A DNA stretch of 37,263 bases from a virus. Taxonomy: Duplodnaviria; Heunggongvirae; Uroviricota; Caudoviricetes. The DNA lies in IMG/VR virus record IMGVR_UViG_2778261172_000006, positions 1-37,263 of that record; one strand, written 5' to 3'. Position 1 is the first letter of the stretch, and each line of letters opens with the position of its first letter. Under the pieces are notes generated by a model. That model made no database searches, was not told the origin of the DNA, and saw only the letters and a list, made by a program, of their open reading frames with translations. Position numbers and translations under genes: made by a program. Below are positions 3,360 through 32,030 of the stretch, in pieces.

Positions 3360-3563
3360 ATGGCAATTAAGCGTTTTTCCGTCATTCGTTTCACATCCAG
3401 AGGGCGTGAATACGAAGTTGACGAACGGCTGATTAAAACGCTCGACCGTCACCGTTCGCAACCTGACGCGCATCACATTTATCTCACTGACGACACTTAC
3501 TTCTGCGCCACCAACGTGGTGCAGGTGAACCTTATCCGACAGGTACAGGAGTCACGCAGATGA
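3360..3563 (+). CDS. hypothetical early protein (67 aa)
   Basis: ATG at 3360 preceded by AGGAGG; stop overlaps next start. Confidence 0.5.
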   Translation: MAIKRFSVIRFTSRGREYEVDERLIKTLDRHRSQPDAHHIYLTDDTYFCATNVVQVNLIRQVQESRR

Positions 3564-3805
3564 CCATTCTGGACTACATCGCCGCCAATCCGGGTTGTAG
3601 CGGCGGAGAAATCGCCGCAGCACTGAATACCCCAACCACAGCCATTAATGCTGAGTTACGCCGACTCTGGCGCGACGGCTTAGTCATCAGAGAAGAACGC
3701 AAAACAGGCGGTCGATTCTCTTACCAGGTAAACCCGATGCCGTTCGGGTGTGGCAACCCGCTTACTCACTTGTTTAACCAGCTACTGAAGGAAGCCAGAG
3801 CATGA
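3560..3805 (+). CDS. small winged-helix-like DNA-binding protein (81 aa)
   Basis: ATGA overlap with upstream and downstream genes; segment GCSGGEIAAALNTPTTAINAELRRLWRDGLV resembles a wHTH. Confidence 0.5.
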   Translation: MTILDYIAANPGCSGGEIAAALNTPTTAINAELRRLWRDGLVIREERKTGGRFSYQVNPMPFGCGNPLTHLFNQLLKEARA

Positions 3806-4101
3806 GCACCATCAACCACCAGGAACTACGCGAACTGGCGACTGACCTGCAACGAATGGCAACGCATCAAAAATTACTGGCGTTTCGCGCAATGCTCTCG
3901 CCGTCTGCCGTGCTGGCGCTACTGGATGAACTGGAGCACGCCAGAACCATGGCTCCTGCCATTCGCCTGACGCTCCATCATGAAATCGCTGATTTCTGCG
4001 CACCACTGGGTTCGCCTGGTGAACCAGAAACGCCGGAAGCAATGCAACGAGAGCTACTGCAACGCATCGACAAGGTTTTTGATTTTTTCCTTAACCAGTA
4101 A
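3802..4101 (+). CDS. hypothetical early protein (99 aa)
   Basis: ATGA-coupled ORF; predicted helical. Confidence 0.5.
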   Translation: MSTINHQELRELATDLQRMATHQKLLAFRAMLSPSAVLALLDELEHARTMAPAIRLTLHHEIADFCAPLGSPGEPETPEAMQRELLQRIDKVFDFFLNQ

Positions 4102-5143: not shown

Positions 5144-5311
5144 TTAAACCCGGCCAGTGAAAATCGCTGGCCGGAGCAGTATCAGGATTTTTTAGTATGC
5201 CGTTCTCACAAAAAAACCGCTTGCCATGCCGCAATCAGTCAGGTTACATTTCCGCTGCACCTCATAAAACGGGTGCCGGGATTTCCACCCCGCTGACAAC
5301 TACAGCGCACA

Positions 5312-5331
5312 ACCGCGCCAGCGGTTTTTTT
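5312..5331 (+). terminator. candidate intrinsic terminator
   Basis: ACCGC-GCCA-GCGGT hairpin directly followed by seven T residues. Confidence 0.5.
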
Positions 5332-5510
5332 GTGCGTACTGTATCGCCACGTCTTTTTCGCACACGAATTATGGTGGGGCGTACGGGGCCGACTTCGGTC
5401 GGGCCGGGTTCTGTAGTTGCCGGTTGTGGAAACCCTGTACGTCTCACCACCCCGAGTTTTCCACCTCTGGATGGTGAGTTTTCAAAACTTGCAACTACAG
5501 AGGCCACACC

Positions 5511-5741
5511 ATGGCAAACCGCAAACAGCACCGCGCTATCGCGGAGCGTCGTCACATCCAGACTGAAATCAACCGCAGACTTTTCCGCGCATCACGCGTC
5601 GCGCAAATCATGCACATCAATATGCTGCATGAACGCAGTCACGCACTATCGAACAGCTATTCCGCCTCTGTTTTCAGCTATCTGGCGGATGATCTGCGCG
5701 AGCTTCAGCAGCTCATCCAGCAGCAAAACAAACTCCATTAA
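5511..5741 (+). CDS. hypothetical small basic protein (76 aa)
   Basis: ATG at 5511 with AGAGG about 8 nt upstream; Arg/His-rich helical sequence; overlaps antisense and alternative ORFs so coding status is uncertain. Confidence 0.4.
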   Translation: MANRKQHRAIAERRHIQTEINRRLFRASRVAQIMHINMLHERSHALSNSYSASVFSYLADDLRELQQLIQQQNKLH

Positions 5742-5813
5742 TTCTGGTTCCGGGCCTTTCCTGCACCTTGCGGCGGGAGGCCTTCGCACATCTGTAACAA
5801 GAGGATTGCCGCA

Positions 5814-6179
5814 ATGATTCTCGCCAACGACTTTCTTGAATACCTGCTCAACACAGAGCGCGATCTTGCCGTTCGCGTGCGTGACCGTTATGACATGTAC
5901 CTGAAATCCCTGCCTGTACCGCAGCTCGCTGACGGAAAGATTGTTATTGATGGCCGCTACATGATTGACAGCCACGAGGGAAATTACAGGCTTTACCGCA
6001 TTGAAGGCGGCACCCCGTCCGTTATTGGCATTTACCAGCACCCATCCTCTGCGATCGTCGATGTGATTGCAGACAGCATCCGCATCACACATCGCTATGC
6101 CGACACAGAAGACACCGTACTGGAAATTCAGCGGCTGGCTGCCGTTTGCCGTGACACCCTGAACGGTATGACGAAGTAA
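5814..6179 (+). CDS. hypothetical protein immediately upstream of A (121 aa)
   Basis: ATG at 5814 with AAGAGGA RBS. Confidence 0.55.
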   Translation: MILANDFLEYLLNTERDLAVRVRDRYDMYLKSLPVPQLADGKIVIDGRYMIDSHEGNYRLYRIEGGTPSVIGIYQHPSSAIVDVIADSIRITHRYADTEDTVLEIQRLAAVCRDTLNGMTK

Positions 6180-6185
6180 ATCAGT

Positions 6186-9008
6186 ATGACGACAGAGTAC
6201 ATCAGGGACTGGCAACAACCGCGCCACGCAGTAGGGCGTGAAGGAACGGGGATCCCCACTCCTGAATCCGCGCTTTCCTCCTGGCTGGATGCCTACCGGG
6301 CAGAGAACGAGCGCCACCAGGAAAAGGCTGATGCGGCGTTCTCCGCCACGCCACTGGGCAACCTGATTAATAAAAGCCTGGACGCACAGGAAAAACAGGA
6401 CAAAACCATCACGCTGGCAGGAGAAGCCAGAAGACAGACACGCGGCACGGTGGATGAAGCCATGGCCTCGCTGCGCCTGCTGCCGTCCTATCTGCGCGAT
6501 CCGCTTATTCGCCACCTCTCCTTCCTGCGCAAAAAACAGGAAGCCGATCTCCGGAAAGAAAAAAATGCCTGGCAGGCAGAAAACTATGCACGCGGAACCC
6601 TGCGCAAGATATTCGTTCGCATTAACCGTGCCGACAGTCGCTGGCTGACACCGGGTTATCGCTCCCTCGCCGGACGTGAGCGTCTGGATGATTTGCTTTA
6701 CCTGCCGCAGCTCAATAAACACCAGATACAGACACTGGCCACCATGACAGCGGCAATGTTCAGCAGCACCTTCGAAACACTCTGTGATGGTTTCGGTGCC
6801 AAAGATGGCGAGCTGACCATGGAGGTGGCACTGAAGGCGTATCAGATGCTGGCCCGCATGGCGTTACACCTGCACACCGTGCCGCCGCATTACGAAGCAC
6901 TGACAACAGACAAAGACCGGAGGAACGAACCGGACACGGAGCTGCTGCCGGGCGCAATCCTTCGTCTGACCTGTGCGGAATGGTGGAAACGCAAACTGTG
7001 GCTGTTACGTTGCGAGTGGCGGGAAGAACAACTCCGTGCCGCCTGTCTGGTTTCCAGAAAAACATCGCCCTATCTGAGCCAGGACGCGTTAAGCGAGTTT
7101 CGCGCACAGCGCGAGAAAACACGCGATTTTCTGAAAAGTTTCATGCTGGAAAACGAAGACGGGTTCACGATTGATCTCGAGACAGTGTATTACGCGGGAG
7201 TAAGTAACCCGGTTCACCGTAAGGCAGAAATGATGGCCACCATGAAGGGGCTGGAACTTCTGGCCGAAGCCCGTGGCGACAAAGCGGTGTTTCTGACTGT
7301 CACCTGCCCGTCAAAATACCACGCCACAACGGAGAACGGTCATCCGAACCCCAAATGGAACGGGGCCACCATGCGCGACTCCAGCGATTACCTGGTTAAC
7401 ACGTTTTTTGCGGCGGTCCGCAAAAAACTGAACCGCGACGGTCTTCGCTGGTATGGCATCCGCACGGTGGAGCCTCACCATGACGGCACCGTGCACTGGC
7501 ATATGATGGTCTTTGCTCATCCGGAAGAAATCGACAGCATCGTGGCCATCACCCGCGATATTGCCATTCAGGAAGACCGCCACGAGCTGGGTGATGATAT
7601 TACCCCACGCTTTAAGGTGGAGTATGTCGACGGCTCAAAAGGCACACCAACCAGCTACATCGCCACCTACATCGGAAAGAACCTGGACAGCCGCGCCGTG
7701 GATGGCATCGACCCGAAAACGGGCAAGCCACGCGTTGACCACGAAACAGGAAAATCAATGACCGAGAGCGTGGAACGCGCCATCGGCTGGGCGCGCCTTC
7801 ACCGGGTCCGCCAGTTCCAGTTCTTTGGCATTCCCTCCCGTCAGGTGTGGCGTGAACTCCGCCGCCTTGCCAGCCAGATGGCACGCAACCCGGAAGGCCC
7901 GCAACGGCTGAAGAATGACGCAATGGATGCGGTACTCGCTGCCGCCGATGCCGGGTGTTTTGCCTCCTACATTGAAAAACAGGGCGGCGTACTTGTTCCA
8001 CGCAAAGACTACCTGATTCGCACCGCCTACGACCTCGCAGATGAGCCGAACGATTACGGCGAACAGAGCGTACAGATTTACGGGATCTGGTCACCACTCA
8101 TCGGGGAATCCTCCCGTGTGTGCACGCACCCGGATAACTGGAAGCTGGTAAGACGTAAACCGGAAGCGGAAGACAACACCCGCGAAAATGGTTTTGACCT
8201 TCAGGGCGGCCCTGCCGCCCCTTGGACTCGTGGCAATAACTGTCCCCGTGTACAGGAAACGGACAACAACGGGACAGAACAGCCGGAAGAACGGCCAGCA
8301 CCGTGGCCGCAGCTTCCTGACGGCATTGAAGTGAACGAATGGATGCGCTCACTGAAACGGCACGAACGCCGGGCGCTGATGCGTTCGCTTCGTGACAAAC
8401 AGGCAAAAAACAGCAGTGATGAAATGCAGAGCTGGACACAGAGCCGCAAACAGCAGCGGCCTTTGCCTGATAACCACGAATTACTCGCTAGAGAATGGCG
8501 GGAGTCTGCTGAATCTCTCGGCCTGCATATCGGTGAACAACAAATGCAGCACCTGTTACGGGGCGGCAGTCTGTACGTTGACGGCAGCATCATTGCACCG
8601 CAGGGATTTGAAATTGTACGCAAACCGGATACCCGCCCGGACAGCCGAATCACGCAGCTCTGGCAACGCCTGAGCCGTAATCACGGCGTAAGCAGCACGG
8701 AGATCCGCCATAACCCGGTCGCCAGCTATCTGGAACAGCTGGGGGCATCAGACCCTGAAGCCGCCGCACGCCTGGCATCCACACTTCAGCAGGACCAGAA
8801 CACCATGAAAACACCCGTTACCGTGCTTTCTGACATGCTGCGCGCCATCCGCGACGCAGAGCACGCACAGAGAATCAGTGAAACCACTGAACGCGCCCGC
8901 CGCAAAGCAGACCTGCTGCGGGGTGGCCTGACCAGTGGAAACAAAAAACAGACAGAAACGGGATTCACAAATCCCGTAAATGAGCAAAAAACGCGCCGCG
9001 ATATATGA
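6186..9008 (+). CDS. A: replication initiation endonuclease, P2 gpA family, with long C-terminal extension
   Basis: 940-aa ORF; HxH-type motif (TVHWHMMVF) and P2 A-like core around residues 330-600; position between early genes and the cargo region. Confidence 0.88.
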   Translation: MTTEYIRDWQQPRHAVGREGTGIPTPESALSSWLDAYRAENERHQEKADAAFSATPLGNLINKSLDAQEKQDKTITLAGEARRQTRGTVDEAMASLRLLPSYLRDPLIRHLSFLRKKQEADLRKEKNAWQAENYARGTLRKIFVRINRADSRWLTPGYRSLAGRERLDDLLYLPQLNKHQIQTLATMTAAMFSSTFETLCDGFGAKDGELTMEVALKAYQMLARMALHLHTVPPHYEALTTDKDRRNEPDTELLPGAILRLTCAEWWKRKLWLLRCEWREEQLRAACLVSRKTSPYLSQDALSEFRAQREKTRDFLKSFMLENEDGFTIDLETVYYAGVSNPVHRKAEMMATMKGLELLAEARGDKAVFLTVTCPSKYHATTENGHPNPKWNGATMRDSSDYLVNTFFAAVRKKLNRDGLRWYGIRTVEPHHDGTVHWHMMVFAHPEEIDSIVAITRDIAIQEDRHELGDDITPRFKVEYVDGSKGTPTSYIATYIGKNLDSRAVDGIDPKTGKPRVDHETGKSMTESVERAIGWARLHRVRQFQFFGIPSRQVWRELRRLASQMARNPEGPQRLKNDAMDAVLAAADAGCFASYIEKQGGVLVPRKDYLIRTAYDLADEPNDYGEQSVQIYGIWSPLIGESSRVCTHPDNWKLVRRKPEAEDNTRENGFDLQGGPAAPWTRGNNCPRVQETDNNGTEQPEERPAPWPQLPDGIEVNEWMRSLKRHERRALMRSLRDKQAKNSSDEMQSWTQSRKQQRPLPDNHELLAREWRESAESLGLHIGEQQMQHLLRGGSLYVDGSIIAPQGFEIVRKPDTRPDSRITQLWQRLSRNHGVSSTEIRHNPVASYLEQLGASDPEAAARLASTLQQDQNTMKTPVTVLSDMLRAIRDAEHAQRISETTERARRKADLLRGGLTSGNKKQTETGFTNPVNEQKTRRDI
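8956..8980. repeat. 25-bp palindromic element, copy 1 (AAACGGGATT-CACA-AATCCCGTAAA)
   Basis: 8-bp inverted repeat ACGGGATT/AATCCCGT with 4-nt spacer, inside the 3' end of A. Confidence 0.7.
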
Positions 9009-9028
9009 AGCGCGCACAAAACAGGCAA

Positions 9029-9053
9029 AAACGGGATTTCAGAATCCCGTAAA
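9029..9053. repeat. 25-bp palindromic element, copy 2 (AAACGGGATT-TCAG-AATCCCGTAAA)
   Basis: Near-identical copy 73 bp downstream of copy 1, 32 bp upstream of the parM-like start. Confidence 0.7.
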
Positions 9054-9084
9054 CGATTAATTAATCAACATAAGGAAAAGCGAC

Positions 9085-10044
9085 ATGAAAATTTGTATCG
9101 ACGACGGCTCCACCAACATCAAGCTGGCATGGACTGAGAACGGCGAACGCCGCAACGCCATCAGCCCGAACAGCTTCAAGTCGGAATGGTCTGCGCCGTT
9201 CGGTGGCACGCAGCCCGCGAACTACATGCTTGATGGCGTGCGCTATGGTTTTGATCCGGTCAGCGATCGCTTTGTCCAGACGACCGACACGCAATACCAG
9301 TACAGCGATGTGAATGTCATTGCCATTCATCACGCGCTGGTCAAATCAGGCATCACGCCACAGGAGGTGGATGTGGTTGTCACCCTGCCACTGAGCGAGT
9401 ATTTCGACACAAACGCACAGCCGGACATGGCCAACATCAACCGCAAAAAAGCGAACGTTATGCGCCCGGTGGAGTACCAGAACGGCGAAGCATTCACTAT
9501 CCGTAACGTGCGGGTTATGCCTGAATCCATTCCGGCTGGCTTTAAGGCACTGGCTGACATGAGTCCGTTTGAATCCCTGCTGATTGTGGATTTAGGCGGA
9601 ACCACGCTGGATGTGGCAAAGGTTCAGGGGCAACTGGCAGGTATCAGCCAGGTGTTTTGCGATCCACACGTAGGCGTTTCCCTGATGGTCGATGCCGTGC
9701 TGTCGGTGATGGCCGCTAACGGTATGCGTACCAGTCACCACATCGCCAATACCATTATCGAACATCGCCATGATGAAGCCTGGTTGCGCCAACACATCCA
9801 CAATGACGCGCATTACGCCAGCCTGATGGCGGTTATTCGTGAAAAGGAAGAAACACTGAAACAACGCGTGATCCGCGCGCTGGCGGGTTTTTCGGGTTAC
9901 GGACGGGTGATGGTTGTCGGTGGCGGGGCGGAGATTGTGGCACCCGCTATCCGCGAAGCCTGCGGAGTTAATGCGACTTTCATCGCGGACGGGGTGCCAC
10001 AGTTTGCTCTGGTTAATGGGCTGTACGCAATGGACAAGGAGTAA
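9085..10044 (+). CDS. parM: ParM/StbA-like actin-type segregation ATPase
   Basis: 319 aa; N-terminus MKICIDDGSTNIKLAW, SDVNVIAIHHAL, VMPESIPAG, DLGGTTLD and VVGGGAE match remembered plasmid R1 ParM motifs along the whole length. Confidence 0.85.
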   Translation: MKICIDDGSTNIKLAWTENGERRNAISPNSFKSEWSAPFGGTQPANYMLDGVRYGFDPVSDRFVQTTDTQYQYSDVNVIAIHHALVKSGITPQEVDVVVTLPLSEYFDTNAQPDMANINRKKANVMRPVEYQNGEAFTIRNVRVMPESIPAGFKALADMSPFESLLIVDLGGTTLDVAKVQGQLAGISQVFCDPHVGVSLMVDAVLSVMAANGMRTSHHIANTIIEHRHDEAWLRQHIHNDAHYASLMAVIREKEETLKQRVIRALAGFSGYGRVMVVGGGAEIVAPAIREACGVNATFIADGVPQFALVNGLYAMDKE

Positions 10045-10048
10045 ACCA

Positions 10049-10363
10049 ATGACGACACCAACCAGACGGATAAGTTTCTATCTGAAGCCCGCCGCCGTCA
10101 ATAGTGAACGGAAGGCGTGTAATTACCTCGACAGCCTGCCAGCCTCTGAACGCAGCCGCGCGCAACGCGCGGCCTTTCTGGCCGGGCTGGCACTCATAAA
10201 ACGCGATCCTGCATTTGCCTATTGGTTGGCCGAATGGCCGGAAGAAGGAGCTGCGCCAGCAAAGAATAATATTCAGAGTAAATATGCCAGCACACCTGCC
10301 ACCGGAAGCAATCACAGCACTAGCGAGATAAGAAAGAACATTCAGTCATTTTTCCCGGAGTGA
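10049..10363 (+). CDS. parR: ParR/StbB-like centromere-binding adaptor
   Basis: ATG at 10049 with AAGGAG RBS; RRISFYLKP...CNYLDSLPASERSRAQRAAFLAGLAL parallels R1 ParR (RRTIAFKLNP...CDTLDSIPQGERSRLNRAALTAGLAL). Confidence 0.75.
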   Translation: MTTPTRRISFYLKPAAVNSERKACNYLDSLPASERSRAQRAAFLAGLALIKRDPAFAYWLAEWPEEGAAPAKNNIQSKYASTPATGSNHSTSEIRKNIQSFFPE

Positions 10364-10382
10364 AAACAGGAGAGGTGCATCT

Positions 10383-10814
10383 ATGGCAACTATTCCCAAA
10401 AAATGGTTACAACGCAAAATCGCAGACCTTGAATCGTGTCGTGAAGACATCCCATTTGGCCTTGATGAAAACGATCACAATATGTTAATCGCACTGAAAA
10501 TCGCACTCACATCGCTGGAAGCGAAACCTGTTGCATGGACTGATGATGAGGAACTGCGTGATGTCAAGCAGTATGGTTTCGGTGAGATATTTCAGTGTCC
10601 GCCAGATAAATACGCGGATCCGCGCCGTGTTATCCCTATGTATCAAGAGCCGCCAGCGCCAGCAGTACCAGATGGGCTGGTTAGAGCGGTGCGTTTCTAT
10701 GAACAGGTTAAGCGTGAAAATCCGCCAGCCGAAACCGGAGCATGGAAAGACGCTGTTGACTGGGTGCTCAAAGAGGCCTGCCAAGTTGTAAACACTGGCA
10801 TCAAAGGAGACTGA
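10383..10814 (+). CDS. hypothetical protein (143 aa)
   Basis: ATG with GGAGAGG RBS; contains motif IALKIALTSLEAKPVAW. Confidence 0.55.
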   Translation: MATIPKKWLQRKIADLESCREDIPFGLDENDHNMLIALKIALTSLEAKPVAWTDDEELRDVKQYGFGEIFQCPPDKYADPRRVIPMYQEPPAPAVPDGLVRAVRFYEQVKRENPPAETGAWKDAVDWVLKEACQVVNTGIKGD

Positions 10815-10815
10815 T

Positions 10816-11025
10816 ATGGCTATTGCCGCAAGTTACACCATGCATCTCTATTGTGATTGCCTCCAGTGTACAGATGGCAAATATAAGTCGCCAGACTTCG
10901 GTGAGTATATAGGTACGTCATGGGCTGGCTGTGCAAAAGAGGCGCGCAAGGATGGCTGGCGAATAAGCAAAGACAAAACGCGTGCTTTTGCGCCCGGGCA
11001 TAAAGTTTTGAGGATTAACAAATGA
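10816..11025 (+). CDS. hypothetical small Cys-rich protein (69 aa)
   Basis: ATG 1 nt after upstream stop; CDCLQC...C pattern. Confidence 0.5.
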   Translation: MAIAASYTMHLYCDCLQCTDGKYKSPDFGEYIGTSWAGCAKEARKDGWRISKDKTRAFAPGHKVLRINK

Positions 11026-11282
11026 CCACTTTAACCGACAAAGAACTGATTAAAGAAATCAAAGAGCGCATAGGCAGCCTAGACGTGAGAGACAATATTG
11101 AACGCCGTGCTTATGAAATTGCTCTGGTATCGCTGGAAGCAGAGCCAGTAGCATGGATGCATGTAAATAACGGCATCGGAATACCAGCAATAACAAGGAG
11201 TAAAGAGGTTGCAGAGAGTTGGTTATCAAAAGGCTGGTATGTCCAACCCTTACATCTAGCCCAGCCTGCATCAAAGCTATAG
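11022..11282 (+). CDS. hypothetical protein (86 aa)
   Basis: ATGA overlap with upstream ORF; shares motif IALVSLEAEPVAW with the 10383 ORF. Confidence 0.5.
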   Translation: MTTLTDKELIKEIKERIGSLDVRDNIERRAYEIALVSLEAEPVAWMHVNNGIGIPAITRSKEVAESWLSKGWYVQPLHLAQPASKL

Positions 11283-12379: not shown

Positions 12380-12404
12380 CAGCCCCATCACGGGGCTGTT
12401 TTTT
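12380..12404. terminator. bidirectional intrinsic terminator between the 174-aa ORF and Q
   Basis: CAGCCCC-ATCA-CGGGGCTG hairpin flanked by AAAAA upstream and TTTTTT downstream. Confidence 0.65.
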
Positions 12405-29213: not shown

Positions 29214-32030
29214 TCAATCTTTATCGTAAAAACTGCCACGTCCGGCACGGGCGCGCCGTTCCATCTCTGCCCTGACCATTTCACCGACCAGTTTCGCCAG
29301 TTCGCGGGGATTCTGCGTAACAACGTTATGCAGATGAACATGAATTTCACCGCCAAATCCGGAGACAACAGGCTCCCGGTTACGGGAAGTTGCAGGAATT
29401 GATGCCACTGGCGATCGTATGGCCTCCGCCACCGGACGGGAGCTGGCCGCAACAACAGGGACCAGCGCCGGAGGCAGAGGAGCCGGGACTACGGGTGTGA
29501 TGTTGATTGCGGAAGCAGACTTACTGGCCTGCGCAATCTTCCGCTCCTGCCACTCCCCACGAACAGCAAGTGCGCGGGGCAGGTTCTTAAAGACAATATC
29601 GCCGGGGCCAATGCGTTTTTTCGTCTCATCAACCAGCTTACCTGTGTTATCAGCAATTTTGCTGAGTCTGCGTAGCGTACCGGTATTGCTGTCTGTGAGC
29701 GGTTTATTGTCTTTGGGTTTATCACCTCCGGTGCCATTGCCATTTTCCGCAGGCTTCGGCGGATTGATTTTCGCAAGGTCCCCCTGAAGCAAGGCAACCT
29801 TGTCCTGAAGAATGGCCGCACGCTGTGCGTCTTCGATTTTCTTGCGCGCCCTTTCCGCTTCATCCGGAAGGACGCCAAGTTTTTCAAGTATCCACGCCAG
29901 CGTATCCAGTAGCATTTTTGCAGGTGTCAGAACAAGCTGTAACGCACCGCCAAGAACGTTACCGAATATCTCGCCAGCACTGGTACATTTATCCAGCGTT
30001 TCCTTGCTGGACTCCATCGGTGATAGCAGCGATTTAAACCAGTTAAAGACCTGAATAATCCCATCACGCACGACATCAAAAACAGGACCGAACCGTTCAA
30101 AGGTTTCGCGCAACGGAGCCAGCCGTTCCATAATCCCACTGAACACCCCGGCATAAAACGCCTTGATGGGTTCCCAGTATTTCCAGATGAGAACCGCCGC
30201 AGCCACAAACGCAGCAACAATCAATCCAACCGGACTGAGCAGCGCCCCGATAGCGCCACCCAGCAACGAGATGGAACCTGTTACCATTCCCCATAGTGCT
30301 GGCAGCACCCTGACGACATTCATTGATCCTGTCAGGAGAGAAAAACCGAGACGTAACGTAGCCAGCTTCCCGTGAAGCACCCCAATAACCAGAGACAACG
30401 AACCAACCGTTGCTGTTGTCGCCAGCAGTGCACCTCCCGCTATCAGTAGCTGGCGCGTCAGTGCCGGATGGGCCTGCGCCAGCGCCGTCACCCTTGATAC
30501 CACCCGCGTGAGCCACTGCGTGACAGAACGCAGCGGACCGTCAATCAGATCTGCAATGCGGATGCGCAACCCTTCCCATGCACTGCCGAGTGATTTCAGA
30601 TCGCCGTCAAGGTTGTTGGCCATAACCTTTGCCGTGCGTTCAGCCTCACCGCGCGCGCCTTCAAGTTCTTTTCTCAGTTTGGGTAAGGAGCCGTCACCTG
30701 CCGCATCAACGAGGGCCATAAATGATGTGAAAGCCTCTTCTCCGGCAATGTCCTTAAAGAACGATACCCGGTCAACTTCCCCGTATTTGCGGGTGGCTTT
30801 ATAAAGGTCAGCCAGCACATCCTCCATCGGGCGCATTTTGCCCCCGGCATCCGAGACAGACACGCCAAGCTCTTTCAGCGCCTCTGCTGCCGCCTTTGGC
30901 GGTGATGCCAGACGAGCCAGGCTGGCACGCATTGCCGTCCCGGCATCACTCCCTCTGATACCCATATTCGCCAGCACGCCCGCCATCGCTGCGGCCTGCT
31001 CCAGCGATATTCCCAGCTTACCCGCCACCGGACCTGCATATTTCATGGTTTCGCCCAGCGCGCGAAGGTCAGTGTTAGTACGGGTAAACGCTGCTGTAAG
31101 CGTGTCACCGACCCGGTCCATCTGGTCAGCGGAGAGGCCGAACTGCGTCAGGATATTTGAGCCAATATCTGCCGTCTCGCCGAGATCCATACCGCCAGCC
31201 GTTGCCATGCTCAGCACGCCGGGAAGCGCAGCCTGAATGGCCTGCGGAGTGAAGCCAGCCATTGCAAGAAATGCCTGCCCACTGGCGGCATCGCCTGCGG
31301 TGAACTGCGTTTCAGAGCCAAGTTTTAACGCCTGCTCACGCAGCGCCTTAAACTGCGGGCTGTTCTGGTCGATTCGCGTCAGTGCCTGAACGCGGGACAT
31401 CTCTTTCCCGAACCCGATCGCAGGCTGCAAAAAACGCCCGGCAGCATAGCCGCCCGCCGCTGCCGCACCAATTGCCAGTGCACCACCTGTTTTCAGTTTT
31501 CCCGCTGTTTCCTGCGCGCGCGAATACCGCTCACGCGCCCGCGTTACACGCGCAAGCGCCTGCCGTTCGCGTTCAAGCTGGTTGTTATACTGTTCGGTGC
31601 GTCTGATGGCCTGCTGGATGGTGTTATCGCTGCCTGTCAGGGAAATGCCGTGGCGTTTCAGCTCTCCGCCAAGCTCCCGCATTTTCTGAATTTCCCGTGT
31701 GCGCGATTCATTCAGGCGTTCAAGCCGGGTGCTTAACTGCTGCATCAGCTTTTGTTGTTTTTCGCTGAGCACTGTACCCGTGCGTTGTAACTGATTAAGG
31801 GCGTTAAGCTGGCGTCGTGCTTTCACGATACCCGCATCCGCTTTACTGACAGCGTCGCGGGCGCGCTCAAATGAACGCGCCTGACGCTCGAGATTTTTGA
31901 TCGCCCCCTGCGTTCGCTGGATGGAGTCACCAAACTGCCCCATCAGGCGGCGTGCGTTTTCGGCAGGTCGGGTCAGCCTGTCAACGGCGCTGAAAGCGAC
32001 CCGGATATCAAGAGTCTTCATTGTCTGCAT
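29214..32030 (-). CDS. T: tail tape measure protein (P2 gpT family)
   Basis: About 940 aa, Ala/Gly-rich with coiled-coil N-terminal half; start ambiguous between 32021, 32030 and 32057. Confidence 0.88.
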   Translation of the reverse strand: MQTMKTLDIRVAFSAVDRLTRPAENARRLMGQFGDSIQRTQGAIKNLERQARSFERARDAVSKADAGIVKARRQLNALNQLQRTGTVLSEKQQKLMQQLSTRLERLNESRTREIQKMRELGGELKRHGISLTGSDNTIQQAIRRTEQYNNQLERERQALARVTRARERYSRAQETAGKLKTGGALAIGAAAAGGYAAGRFLQPAIGFGKEMSRVQALTRIDQNSPQFKALREQALKLGSETQFTAGDAASGQAFLAMAGFTPQAIQAALPGVLSMATAGGMDLGETADIGSNILTQFGLSADQMDRVGDTLTAAFTRTNTDLRALGETMKYAGPVAGKLGISLEQAAAMAGVLANMGIRGSDAGTAMRASLARLASPPKAAAEALKELGVSVSDAGGKMRPMEDVLADLYKATRKYGEVDRVSFFKDIAGEEAFTSFMALVDAAGDGSLPKLRKELEGARGEAERTAKVMANNLDGDLKSLGSAWEGLRIRIADLIDGPLRSVTQWLTRVVSRVTALAQAHPALTRQLLIAGGALLATTATVGSLSLVIGVLHGKLATLRLGFSLLTGSMNVVRVLPALWGMVTGSISLLGGAIGALLSPVGLIVAAFVAAAVLIWKYWEPIKAFYAGVFSGIMERLAPLRETFERFGPVFDVVRDGIIQVFNWFKSLLSPMESSKETLDKCTSAGEIFGNVLGGALQLVLTPAKMLLDTLAWILEKLGVLPDEAERARKKIEDAQRAAILQDKVALLQGDLAKINPPKPAENGNGTGGDKPKDNKPLTDSNTGTLRRLSKIADNTGKLVDETKKRIGPGDIVFKNLPRALAVRGEWQERKIAQASKSASAINITPVVPAPLPPALVPVVAASSRPVAEAIRSPVASIPATSRNREPVVSGFGGEIHVHLHNVVTQNPRELAKLVGEMVRAEMERRARAGRGSFYDKD

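Follow-up and report, generated by a model that had tools for sequence, protein, structure and literature searches.

Two phased palindromes upstream of parMR in a P88-like prophage as a probable parC-type partition site

Introduction

What is the function of two closely similar palindromes that lie where the replication gene A of a prophage gives way to a parM-like gene? The question was raised by a 37,263-nucleotide stretch of tailed-phage DNA (IMG/VR record IMGVR_UViG_2778261172_000006, positions 1 to 37,263; hereafter the window), for which an original prediction, made from the letters alone, had placed the two palindromes where a parC-type centromere and operator would be expected, with transcription attenuators or part of the replication origin as alternatives. 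Our comparative analysis favours the first reading, to which we give a probability of roughly 0.7: the palindromes and their A-rich flanks (~8942-9056) would be the cis-acting parC of a phage-borne type II (ParMRC) partition cassette. The site is probably an atypical parC, built of two inverted-repeat sites and not of a direct-repeat array. Systems of this kind are well known; new would be an R1-family ParMRC centromere laid out as two inverted-repeat operators and carried by an integrating phage.

About one-quarter of P2-like phages carry a 'putative plasmid partitioning system' in the hotspot between gpA and gpQ (Rousset et al., PMC9122126), and the parMR pair of this hotspot has so far been mentioned only in passing (PMC9122126). 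The element is very common in E. coli and its site is undescribed in the literature searched, where nothing relevant was found on a parC or cis site of P88 or Xuanwuvirus.

Results

The sequence ACGGGATT-N4-AATCCCGT was found at two places in the window (Table 1), with no other match at up to two mismatches, and 100 dinucleotide shuffles of the window gave no chance match, which confirms the two palindromes first noted 73 bp apart. They had been described as 25-bp elements, AAACGGGATTCACAAATCCCGTAAA (8956-8980) and AAACGGGATTTCAGAATCCCGTAAA (9029-9053), and this held for the inner 20 bp (8-bp arms around a 4-nt loop) but not for the ends, as the outer AAA...AAA triplets are direct, not inverted, repeats. 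Locally the sequence is ...AACAAAAAACAGACAGAAACGGGATTCACAAATCCCGTAAATGAGC... and ...CACAAAACAGGCAAAAACGGGATTTCAGAATCCCGTAAACGATTAATTAATC..., after which the parM start codon ATG stands at 9085. Each copy is held in a 42-nt direct repeat (family D1), the two units being 81% identical and also spaced by 73, so that the flanking similarity originally put at about 40 bp was borne out; relative to the parM ATG the units with their palindromic cores lie at -127 and -54. Copy 1 falls within the A open reading frame (ORF) and 32 nt separate the end of copy 2 from the parM ATG, in agreement with the placement first proposed. The shorter core GGGATT-N4-AATCCC, with two mismatches allowed, was by itself not significant in the window, and thus the significance of the pair rests on the exact 16 arm bases together with their duplication. 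Further ParR half-sites in the centre or the flanks were seen as 2-mismatch matches only, of doubtful meaning.

By sequence comparison, the palindromes belong to the parMR cassette and not to A. Two P88-like prophages, L155 (E. coli APEC E12053) and L156 (E. coli SA31-1), have A 3' ends of 94-97% DNA identity and carry neither palindrome, L155 (3140-3200) retaining just a decayed relic of palindrome 1, AAACGGAGTTTGAAAATCAAATGA; in place of parMR, L155 has a KAP-family NTPase as its cargo and L156 an AAA ATPase with an S8 peptidase, a swap that would fit the gpA-gpQ defence hotspot. The motif was likewise absent with the more distant A homologs of SEN8, Klebsiella phages and P2 itself. Among prophages with the palindromes, A of E. 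marmotae ends ahead of copy 1, which leaves both copies outside A; the Hafnia A has its stop codon just past copy 1, and A of the window stops between the two copies. L043 has a separate 155-aa ORF (3457-3924) between A and the putative parC that reads into copy 1, and the homology of L043 to the window starts at ~8946, the DNA from that point on being common to the window, E. marmotae, Hafnia and L043. Both palindromes of L043 (3870-3960) show the same left-arm G-to-A change (ACAGGATT), suggesting gene conversion between the repeat units. An exact-pattern scan of IMG/VR gave at least 78 new loci among the matches listed; in 73 of the 75 that were assessable a parM start lay 30-140 nt downstream, and the remaining listed loci were two unrelated AT-rich contigs with a single copy and three loci cut by contig ends.

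The check named in the original prediction, a comparison of relatives with and without parMR-like genes, thus came out in favour of its parC-position reading: close parMR-less relatives have no palindromes, and the site stands directly upstream of an R1-type gene pair with which it is inherited and associated. The parMR cassette brings its own conserved upstream module of ~145 bp, composed of two phased palindromes, A-rich flanks and the parM Shine-Dalgarno (SD) sequence.

The same comparison bears on the proposal that the palindromes belong to the origin of phage replication or serve the A protein as an accessory site. Origins of the P2 family lie in gene A, and copy 1 is also inside the A ORF; however, the palindromes are missing from the prophages with a 94-97% identical A 3' end and both lie outside A in E. 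marmotae. Moreover, a homolog of the P2 nick site (GCCGCGCCTCGGAGTCCTGTCAATAAC) was located elsewhere in A, ~730 bp upstream of the palindromes, where the encoded stretch GGPAAPWTRGNNCP is homologous to P2 A residues 611-625. The nick-site sequence is kept (GCCGCCCCTTGGACTCGTGGCAATAACTGT here and GCCGCGCCTCGGAGTCCTGTCAATAACTGT in P2), and the P2 nick is annotated at nt 29892 of AF063097, in the codons for A residues ~620. We consider this homolog (8205-8246) to be probably the replication origin of this phage, and an origin role for the palindromes themselves, one of the alternatives first offered, to be extremely unlikely.

The parM-like and ParR-like genes downstream of the site proved to be a genuine R1-type pair, as judged from Pfam, from the match of ParM to the R1 structure 1MWK (Table 1) and from the similarity of ParR to R1 ParR, with 45% identity over R1 residues 5-62 (E 9e-17, BLASTP). 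ParR aligns over its full length with R1 and other plasmid ParRs, its tail ...RKNIQSFFPE corresponding to ...KKNAMKLIN of R1. A profile of 20 ParR variants matched the pB171 ParR structure 2JD3 weakly (E 0.009); the ParR monomer model gave a helix-helix behind an unstructured N-terminus with low confidence (predicted local distance difference test score, pLDDT, 62), and a Foldseek search of this low-confidence model against the PDB returned noise only. The ParR linker (residues ~65-95) is hypervariable, with overall identity down to 48%, and stands between a conserved N-terminal part of 63 residues and a conserved NIxxFFPE tail. Two ParR N-terminal types, LPASERSRAQRA and LTPEARKSGQRV, accompany identical palindromes, and the predicted DNA-reading strand TRRISFYLKP is invariant among ParR variants of 48-97% identity. 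The invariance of this putative strand accords with that of the palindrome core, and we counted it in favour of the parC reading.

The conservation of the palindromes was seen most clearly in a Hafnia prophage, whose ParM is 94% identical at the protein level with synonymous third positions only 71.7% identical. Both GGGATT-N4-AATCCC cores were intact at 24 of 24 bases (0.717^24 = 3e-4, for a post hoc choice of positions), and with all arm positions taken a priori 28 of 32 bases were kept (p = 0.03). The outer AC/GT pairs were lost in Hafnia, which makes the 6-bp core the probable functional unit. The Hafnia spacing is exactly 73, though a +1/-1 indel pair is needed to align the centre; over all loci the spacing was 73 in 91 of 94 and 72 or 74 in the other three. 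Among 60 unique E. coli haplotypes, GG at arm positions 4-5 was invariant (240/240 half-sites) and A6, T8 and C2 were each present in at least 234 of the 240, and the core is also kept in E. marmotae as in Hafnia. The loop of palindrome 2 varies (TCAG, TAAA, TGAA, TCTG) with the cores kept. The most variable stretch was the centre (8993-9014), the mean minor-allele frequency being 0.047 in the central spacer compared with 0.006-0.03 in the flanks. ParM relatives in phages, plasmids, IMG/VR and one genome per species were either at least 94% or at most 53% identical, apart from one partial plasmid match of 62%, and this gap means that the collections searched hold no deep comparative data.

The pattern of natural variation also bears on whether the palindromes are read as DNA or as RNA. 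All arm variants in the 60 haplotypes were one-sided, with no compensatory double change in any pair, which argues against an RNA hairpin and would be expected of independently read half-sites. In E. marmotae one half-site of each palindrome reads GGGGTT in place of GGGATT, on the right in copy 1 and on the left in copy 2, so that pairing is kept on no single strand; these changes look like tolerated half-site degeneracy and not like stem maintenance. When scored for G-U compatibility, the two copies pointed to opposite strands, the variants of copy 1 being compatible on the minus strand alone and those of copy 2 on the plus strand alone; this pattern comes from approximately three mutation events, and no single transcript appears to be consistently favoured.

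A role as hairpins in the A-parM transcript, acting as attenuator, processing site or mRNA stabiliser, was considered in the light of these data. On the plus strand both hairpins fold better than shuffles (z = -4.6 and -3.8) and the copy 2 variants give 37 G-U pairs against 6 mismatches, but the copy 1 variants give 29 mismatches, the absence of compensatory changes and the E. marmotae half-sites speak against it, and Rfam had no match. Neither hairpin is followed by a U-tract on the plus strand (GTAAATGAG, GTAAACGAT), and therefore intrinsic attenuation is unlikely; the attenuator originally suggested as an alternative thus fares worse than the partition site, and we regard plus-strand RNA function in general as very unlikely.

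On the minus strand, T-rich runs follow both hairpins, which are the top two terminator-like sites in 8000-10500 with a hairpin energy of approximately -11 to -12 kcal/mol; the T-rich flanks are kept in Hafnia, and the copy 1 variants give 27 G-U pairs against 3 mismatches on this strand. Tandem rho-independent terminators could here keep antisense or read-through transcription, coming for instance out of the leftward late P-Q operon or out of cargo genes, from entering the essential A gene. Yet the copy 2 variants give 39 A-C mismatches on this strand, the hairpins have weak z-scores of -2.5 and -2.0, the scan of 8000-10500 gave no promoter on the minus strand, and no minus-strand gene lies nearby upstream: all annotated genes in 5197-11282 are on the plus strand, and the nearest minus-strand gene, the portal gene, ends at 12388, ~3.3 kb off with plus-strand ORFs intervening. 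Furthermore, an insulator of A should be independent of cargo, yet the parMR-less relatives have no palindromes. Tandem termination is thus an improbable explanation of the pair, although such a role could coexist with ParR binding.

Several observations weigh against a parC-type site. All characterised ParRs bind direct repeats (PMC9426499), and the four half-sites found here are far below the ten iterons of R1. The 12-35-aa middle segment of plasmid ParRs is missing from this ParR, which may therefore be unable to build a solenoid segrosome of the canonical kind. A scan of both strands over 8000-10500 gave no sigma-70 consensus, a weak TATA-like CGATATA being conserved in the centre, and so lends no support to the operator half of the parC analogy. 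The resemblance of both hairpins to intrinsic terminators on the minus strand counts in the same direction, as does the finding that within E. coli (the 60 haplotypes) the arms are at least as polymorphic as the neighbouring sequence. Finally, when 32 ParR N-terminal variants were tabulated against palindrome variants, no pattern of covariation between ParR and site was seen; because the putative reading strand never varies, this result is uninformative and not negative.

The sequence context identifies the window as a P88-like (Xuanwuvirus, Peduoviridae, P2-like) prophage integrated beside pdxB. Phage P88 and 13 other records match the 701 nt surrounding the palindromes at 97-99% identity, and a 100% identical copy adjoins pdxB in E. 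coli EcPF14 together with integrase, repressor, Cox, A, ParM, ParR, portal and the remaining P2-type genome. The parMR junction was present in 1373 of 5426 complete E. coli genomes, O157:H7 and ST131 strains included, and 1533 of its 1535 places in these genomes were chromosomal. P88-like genomes were also met as separate replicons in two complete E. coli assemblies, CP025923.1 and CP025874.1 (strains 520873 and 503458). Such deposits possibly point to an extrachromosomal form of the phage, for which partitioning would be important.

The locus holds further elements of minor weight. The 12-bp palindrome GATTAATTAATC in front of parM is kept in E. coli and broken in Hafnia (GATTAATAAAGC). A lone extra half-site AATCCCGT lies on the minus strand at 328-335, close to the pdxB/prophage boundary; since chance alone should yield approximately one match of this kind in a sequence the size of the window, this copy is probably meaningless. 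A repeat of the MITE (miniature inverted-repeat transposable element) or REP (repetitive extragenic palindromic) type was ruled out for the palindromes, the element being confined to one locus within the window.

Table 1. Positions of the palindromes, the repeat units and the neighbouring features in the window
Feature	Position	Strand	Description
Gene A, replication endonuclease, 940 aa	6186-9008	+	Phage_GPA 5.7e-130; last ~22 codons lie in the putative parC DNA
P2 ori nick-site homolog inside A	8205-8246	+	Sequence and protein alignment with P2; separate from the palindromes
Repeat unit 1, putative parC	8942-8983		A-rich left flank, palindrome 1, right flank GTAAATGA; in the 3' tail of the A ORF
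Palindrome 1	8958-8977		ACGGGATT-CACA-AATCCCGT; read as two inverted half-sites, core GGGATT, centres 10 bp apart
Central spacer	8984-9014		GC-rich; TATA-like CGATATA; A stop codon at 9006-9008; most variable segment
Repeat unit 2, putative parC	9015-9056		Intergenic; block ACAAAACAGGCAAAAACGGGATTT 100% identical in Hafnia
Palindrome 2	9031-9050		ACGGGATT-TCAG-AATCCCGT
Perfect 12-bp palindrome GATTAATTAATC	9055-9066		Between palindrome 2 and the parM ribosome-binding site AAGGA (9072-9076)
parM, actin-like segregation ATPase, 319 aa	9085-10044	+	Pfam StbA_N 1.8e-82, ParM 3.9e-68; R1 ParM, PDB 1MWK, E 9.1e-93
parR/stbB, 104-aa adaptor	10049-10363	+	PF10784 5.9e-26; N-terminal ribbon-helix-helix part, hypervariable linker, conserved C-terminal tail NIQSFFPE

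Discussion

How might such a site work? Each 20-bp palindrome can be read as a pair of inverted ~10-bp half-sites with centres one helical turn apart, to which two ParR ribbon-helix-helix dimers would bind in the fashion of Arc/Mnt-type operators. As the 73 bp between the palindromes correspond to seven helical turns, the two bound tetramers would lie on the same face of the helix around the variable centre, and the A-tracts may help to fold this centre as in R1 parC with its U-shaped ParR complex. Through its conserved C-terminal tail, ParR would then link this assembly to elongating ParM filaments, and the filaments would drive apart the copies of the circular phage genome. An effect of bound ParR on the transcription that enters parM is also probable. 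Such transcription may come from gene A: there is no plus-strand terminator between A and parM and no promoter was found, suggesting that parMR may be co-transcribed with the early operon. If so, we speculate that the system acts on circular phage genomes after infection or induction and not in the integrated state.

A more specific form of this scheme is a minimal centromere, in which two Arc-like tetramer operators, in phase and seven turns apart, would be read by the shortened ParR as a small clamp, and not as the solenoid of R1, pB171 or pSK41; with it the phage would segregate its circular genomes while these are not integrated, following infection or excision, or would act against related phages through incompatibility. 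We regard this version as unlikely; it would mean that capture of a ParM filament needs far fewer adaptor dimers than current models assume.

With a probable cis site defined, it becomes testable why an integrating phage carries a plasmid segregation machine, as the site can be deleted, moved or titrated. If functional, it would broaden the accepted rule that ParRs read direct-repeat arrays and would provide a very small and tractable ParMRC system for structural work.

Comparison with known systems

In R1 parC, ten 11-bp iterons are divided five and five by a promoter region of 39 bp, and the complex that forms is U-shaped and contains approximately one ParR dimer per iteron (PMC2241845). The putative site described here resembles it (parMRC, or stbAB of NR1) in lying directly upstream of parM-parR genes for homologous proteins, in having two repeat-bearing, A-rich blocks that flank a central region, and in the SD context CATAAGGA common to both; the iteron core AAACCC of R1 is also similar to the half-site AATCCC here (AAnCCC). 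However, ten 11-bp direct iterons in R1 stand against four half-sites in two inverted pairs here, the blocks are 55 nt with a start-to-start distance of 94 in R1 and 42 nt with 73 here, and the centre here has no recognisable promoter. In addition, ParR here is without the middle segment, the residues of the presumed DNA-facing strand differ (RRTIAFKLNP in R1 and TRRISFYLKP here), and the host element is an integrating phage, whereas R1 is a plasmid. Direct iteron arrays are also the rule in pB171 (10 bp) and pSK41 (4x20 bp).

The plasmid and phage-plasmid relatives compared, with ParMs of 40-53% identity, likewise carry direct iterons with ~11-bp phasing in two clusters upstream of parM. The R1-type iterons (AAACCCAAAAA, CAACCCACACC and others) have a cluster spacing of 94, the IncL/M iteron CTGTATTTTTCT has a cluster spacing of 73 bp, and D6 and many others have the iteron (T/A)TCTCA; the GGGATT palindrome was found in none of these relatives. 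A direct array phased at 10-11 bp was not seen at the present site, which has two inverted pairs instead, so that the architecture first called atypical in comparison with R1 is indeed so. It is worth mentioning that several assemblies labelled as other organisms, namely L101, L123, L124 and L141 (Vagococcus sp., Streptomyces morookaense, an uncultured Clostridiales and a Lachnospiraceae), hold enterobacterial loci. L101 has a P88-type parM 97% identical to that of the window, the ParRs of L123 and L124 are identical to that of R1, and the ParR of L141 is identical to that of the E. coli IncF plasmid L085; assembly contamination is the most likely explanation.

Operators of Arc, Mnt and CopG are ~20-bp palindromes of two half-sites about one helical turn apart, each taken by one ribbon-helix-helix dimer. 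The likeness of the present palindromes to them is geometric only: those proteins are pure repressors with a single operator at a promoter, whereas here two such elements stand in the centromere position of a partition operon. A partition system on a normally integrated element has a precedent in srpMRC of SXT/R391, a type II system which is functional and whose srpC mixes direct and inverted 13-bp repeats (PMC4489591). In contrast with the present cassette, SrpR has no detectable homology to ParR/StbB, the sequence and layout of the repeats differ, and the carrier is an integrative and conjugative element, not a phage.

A further parallel in layout came from two uncharacterised StbAB plasmid loci, L104 (an Erwinia metagenome-assembled genome) and L142 (Rouxiella), which encode the same protein families and have inverted pairs TCTCAA-T-TTGAGA upstream of parM, twice in L104 (at -75 and -35 from parM) and at -80 in L142. 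They differ from the window in half-site sequence, in a centre-to-centre distance of 7 bp and not 10, in extra direct copies and in their plasmid context. Nevertheless, this inverted use of the common TCTCAA iteron shows that flips of orientation do occur in the StbAB family, and we counted it as a precedent in favour of a palindromic parC.

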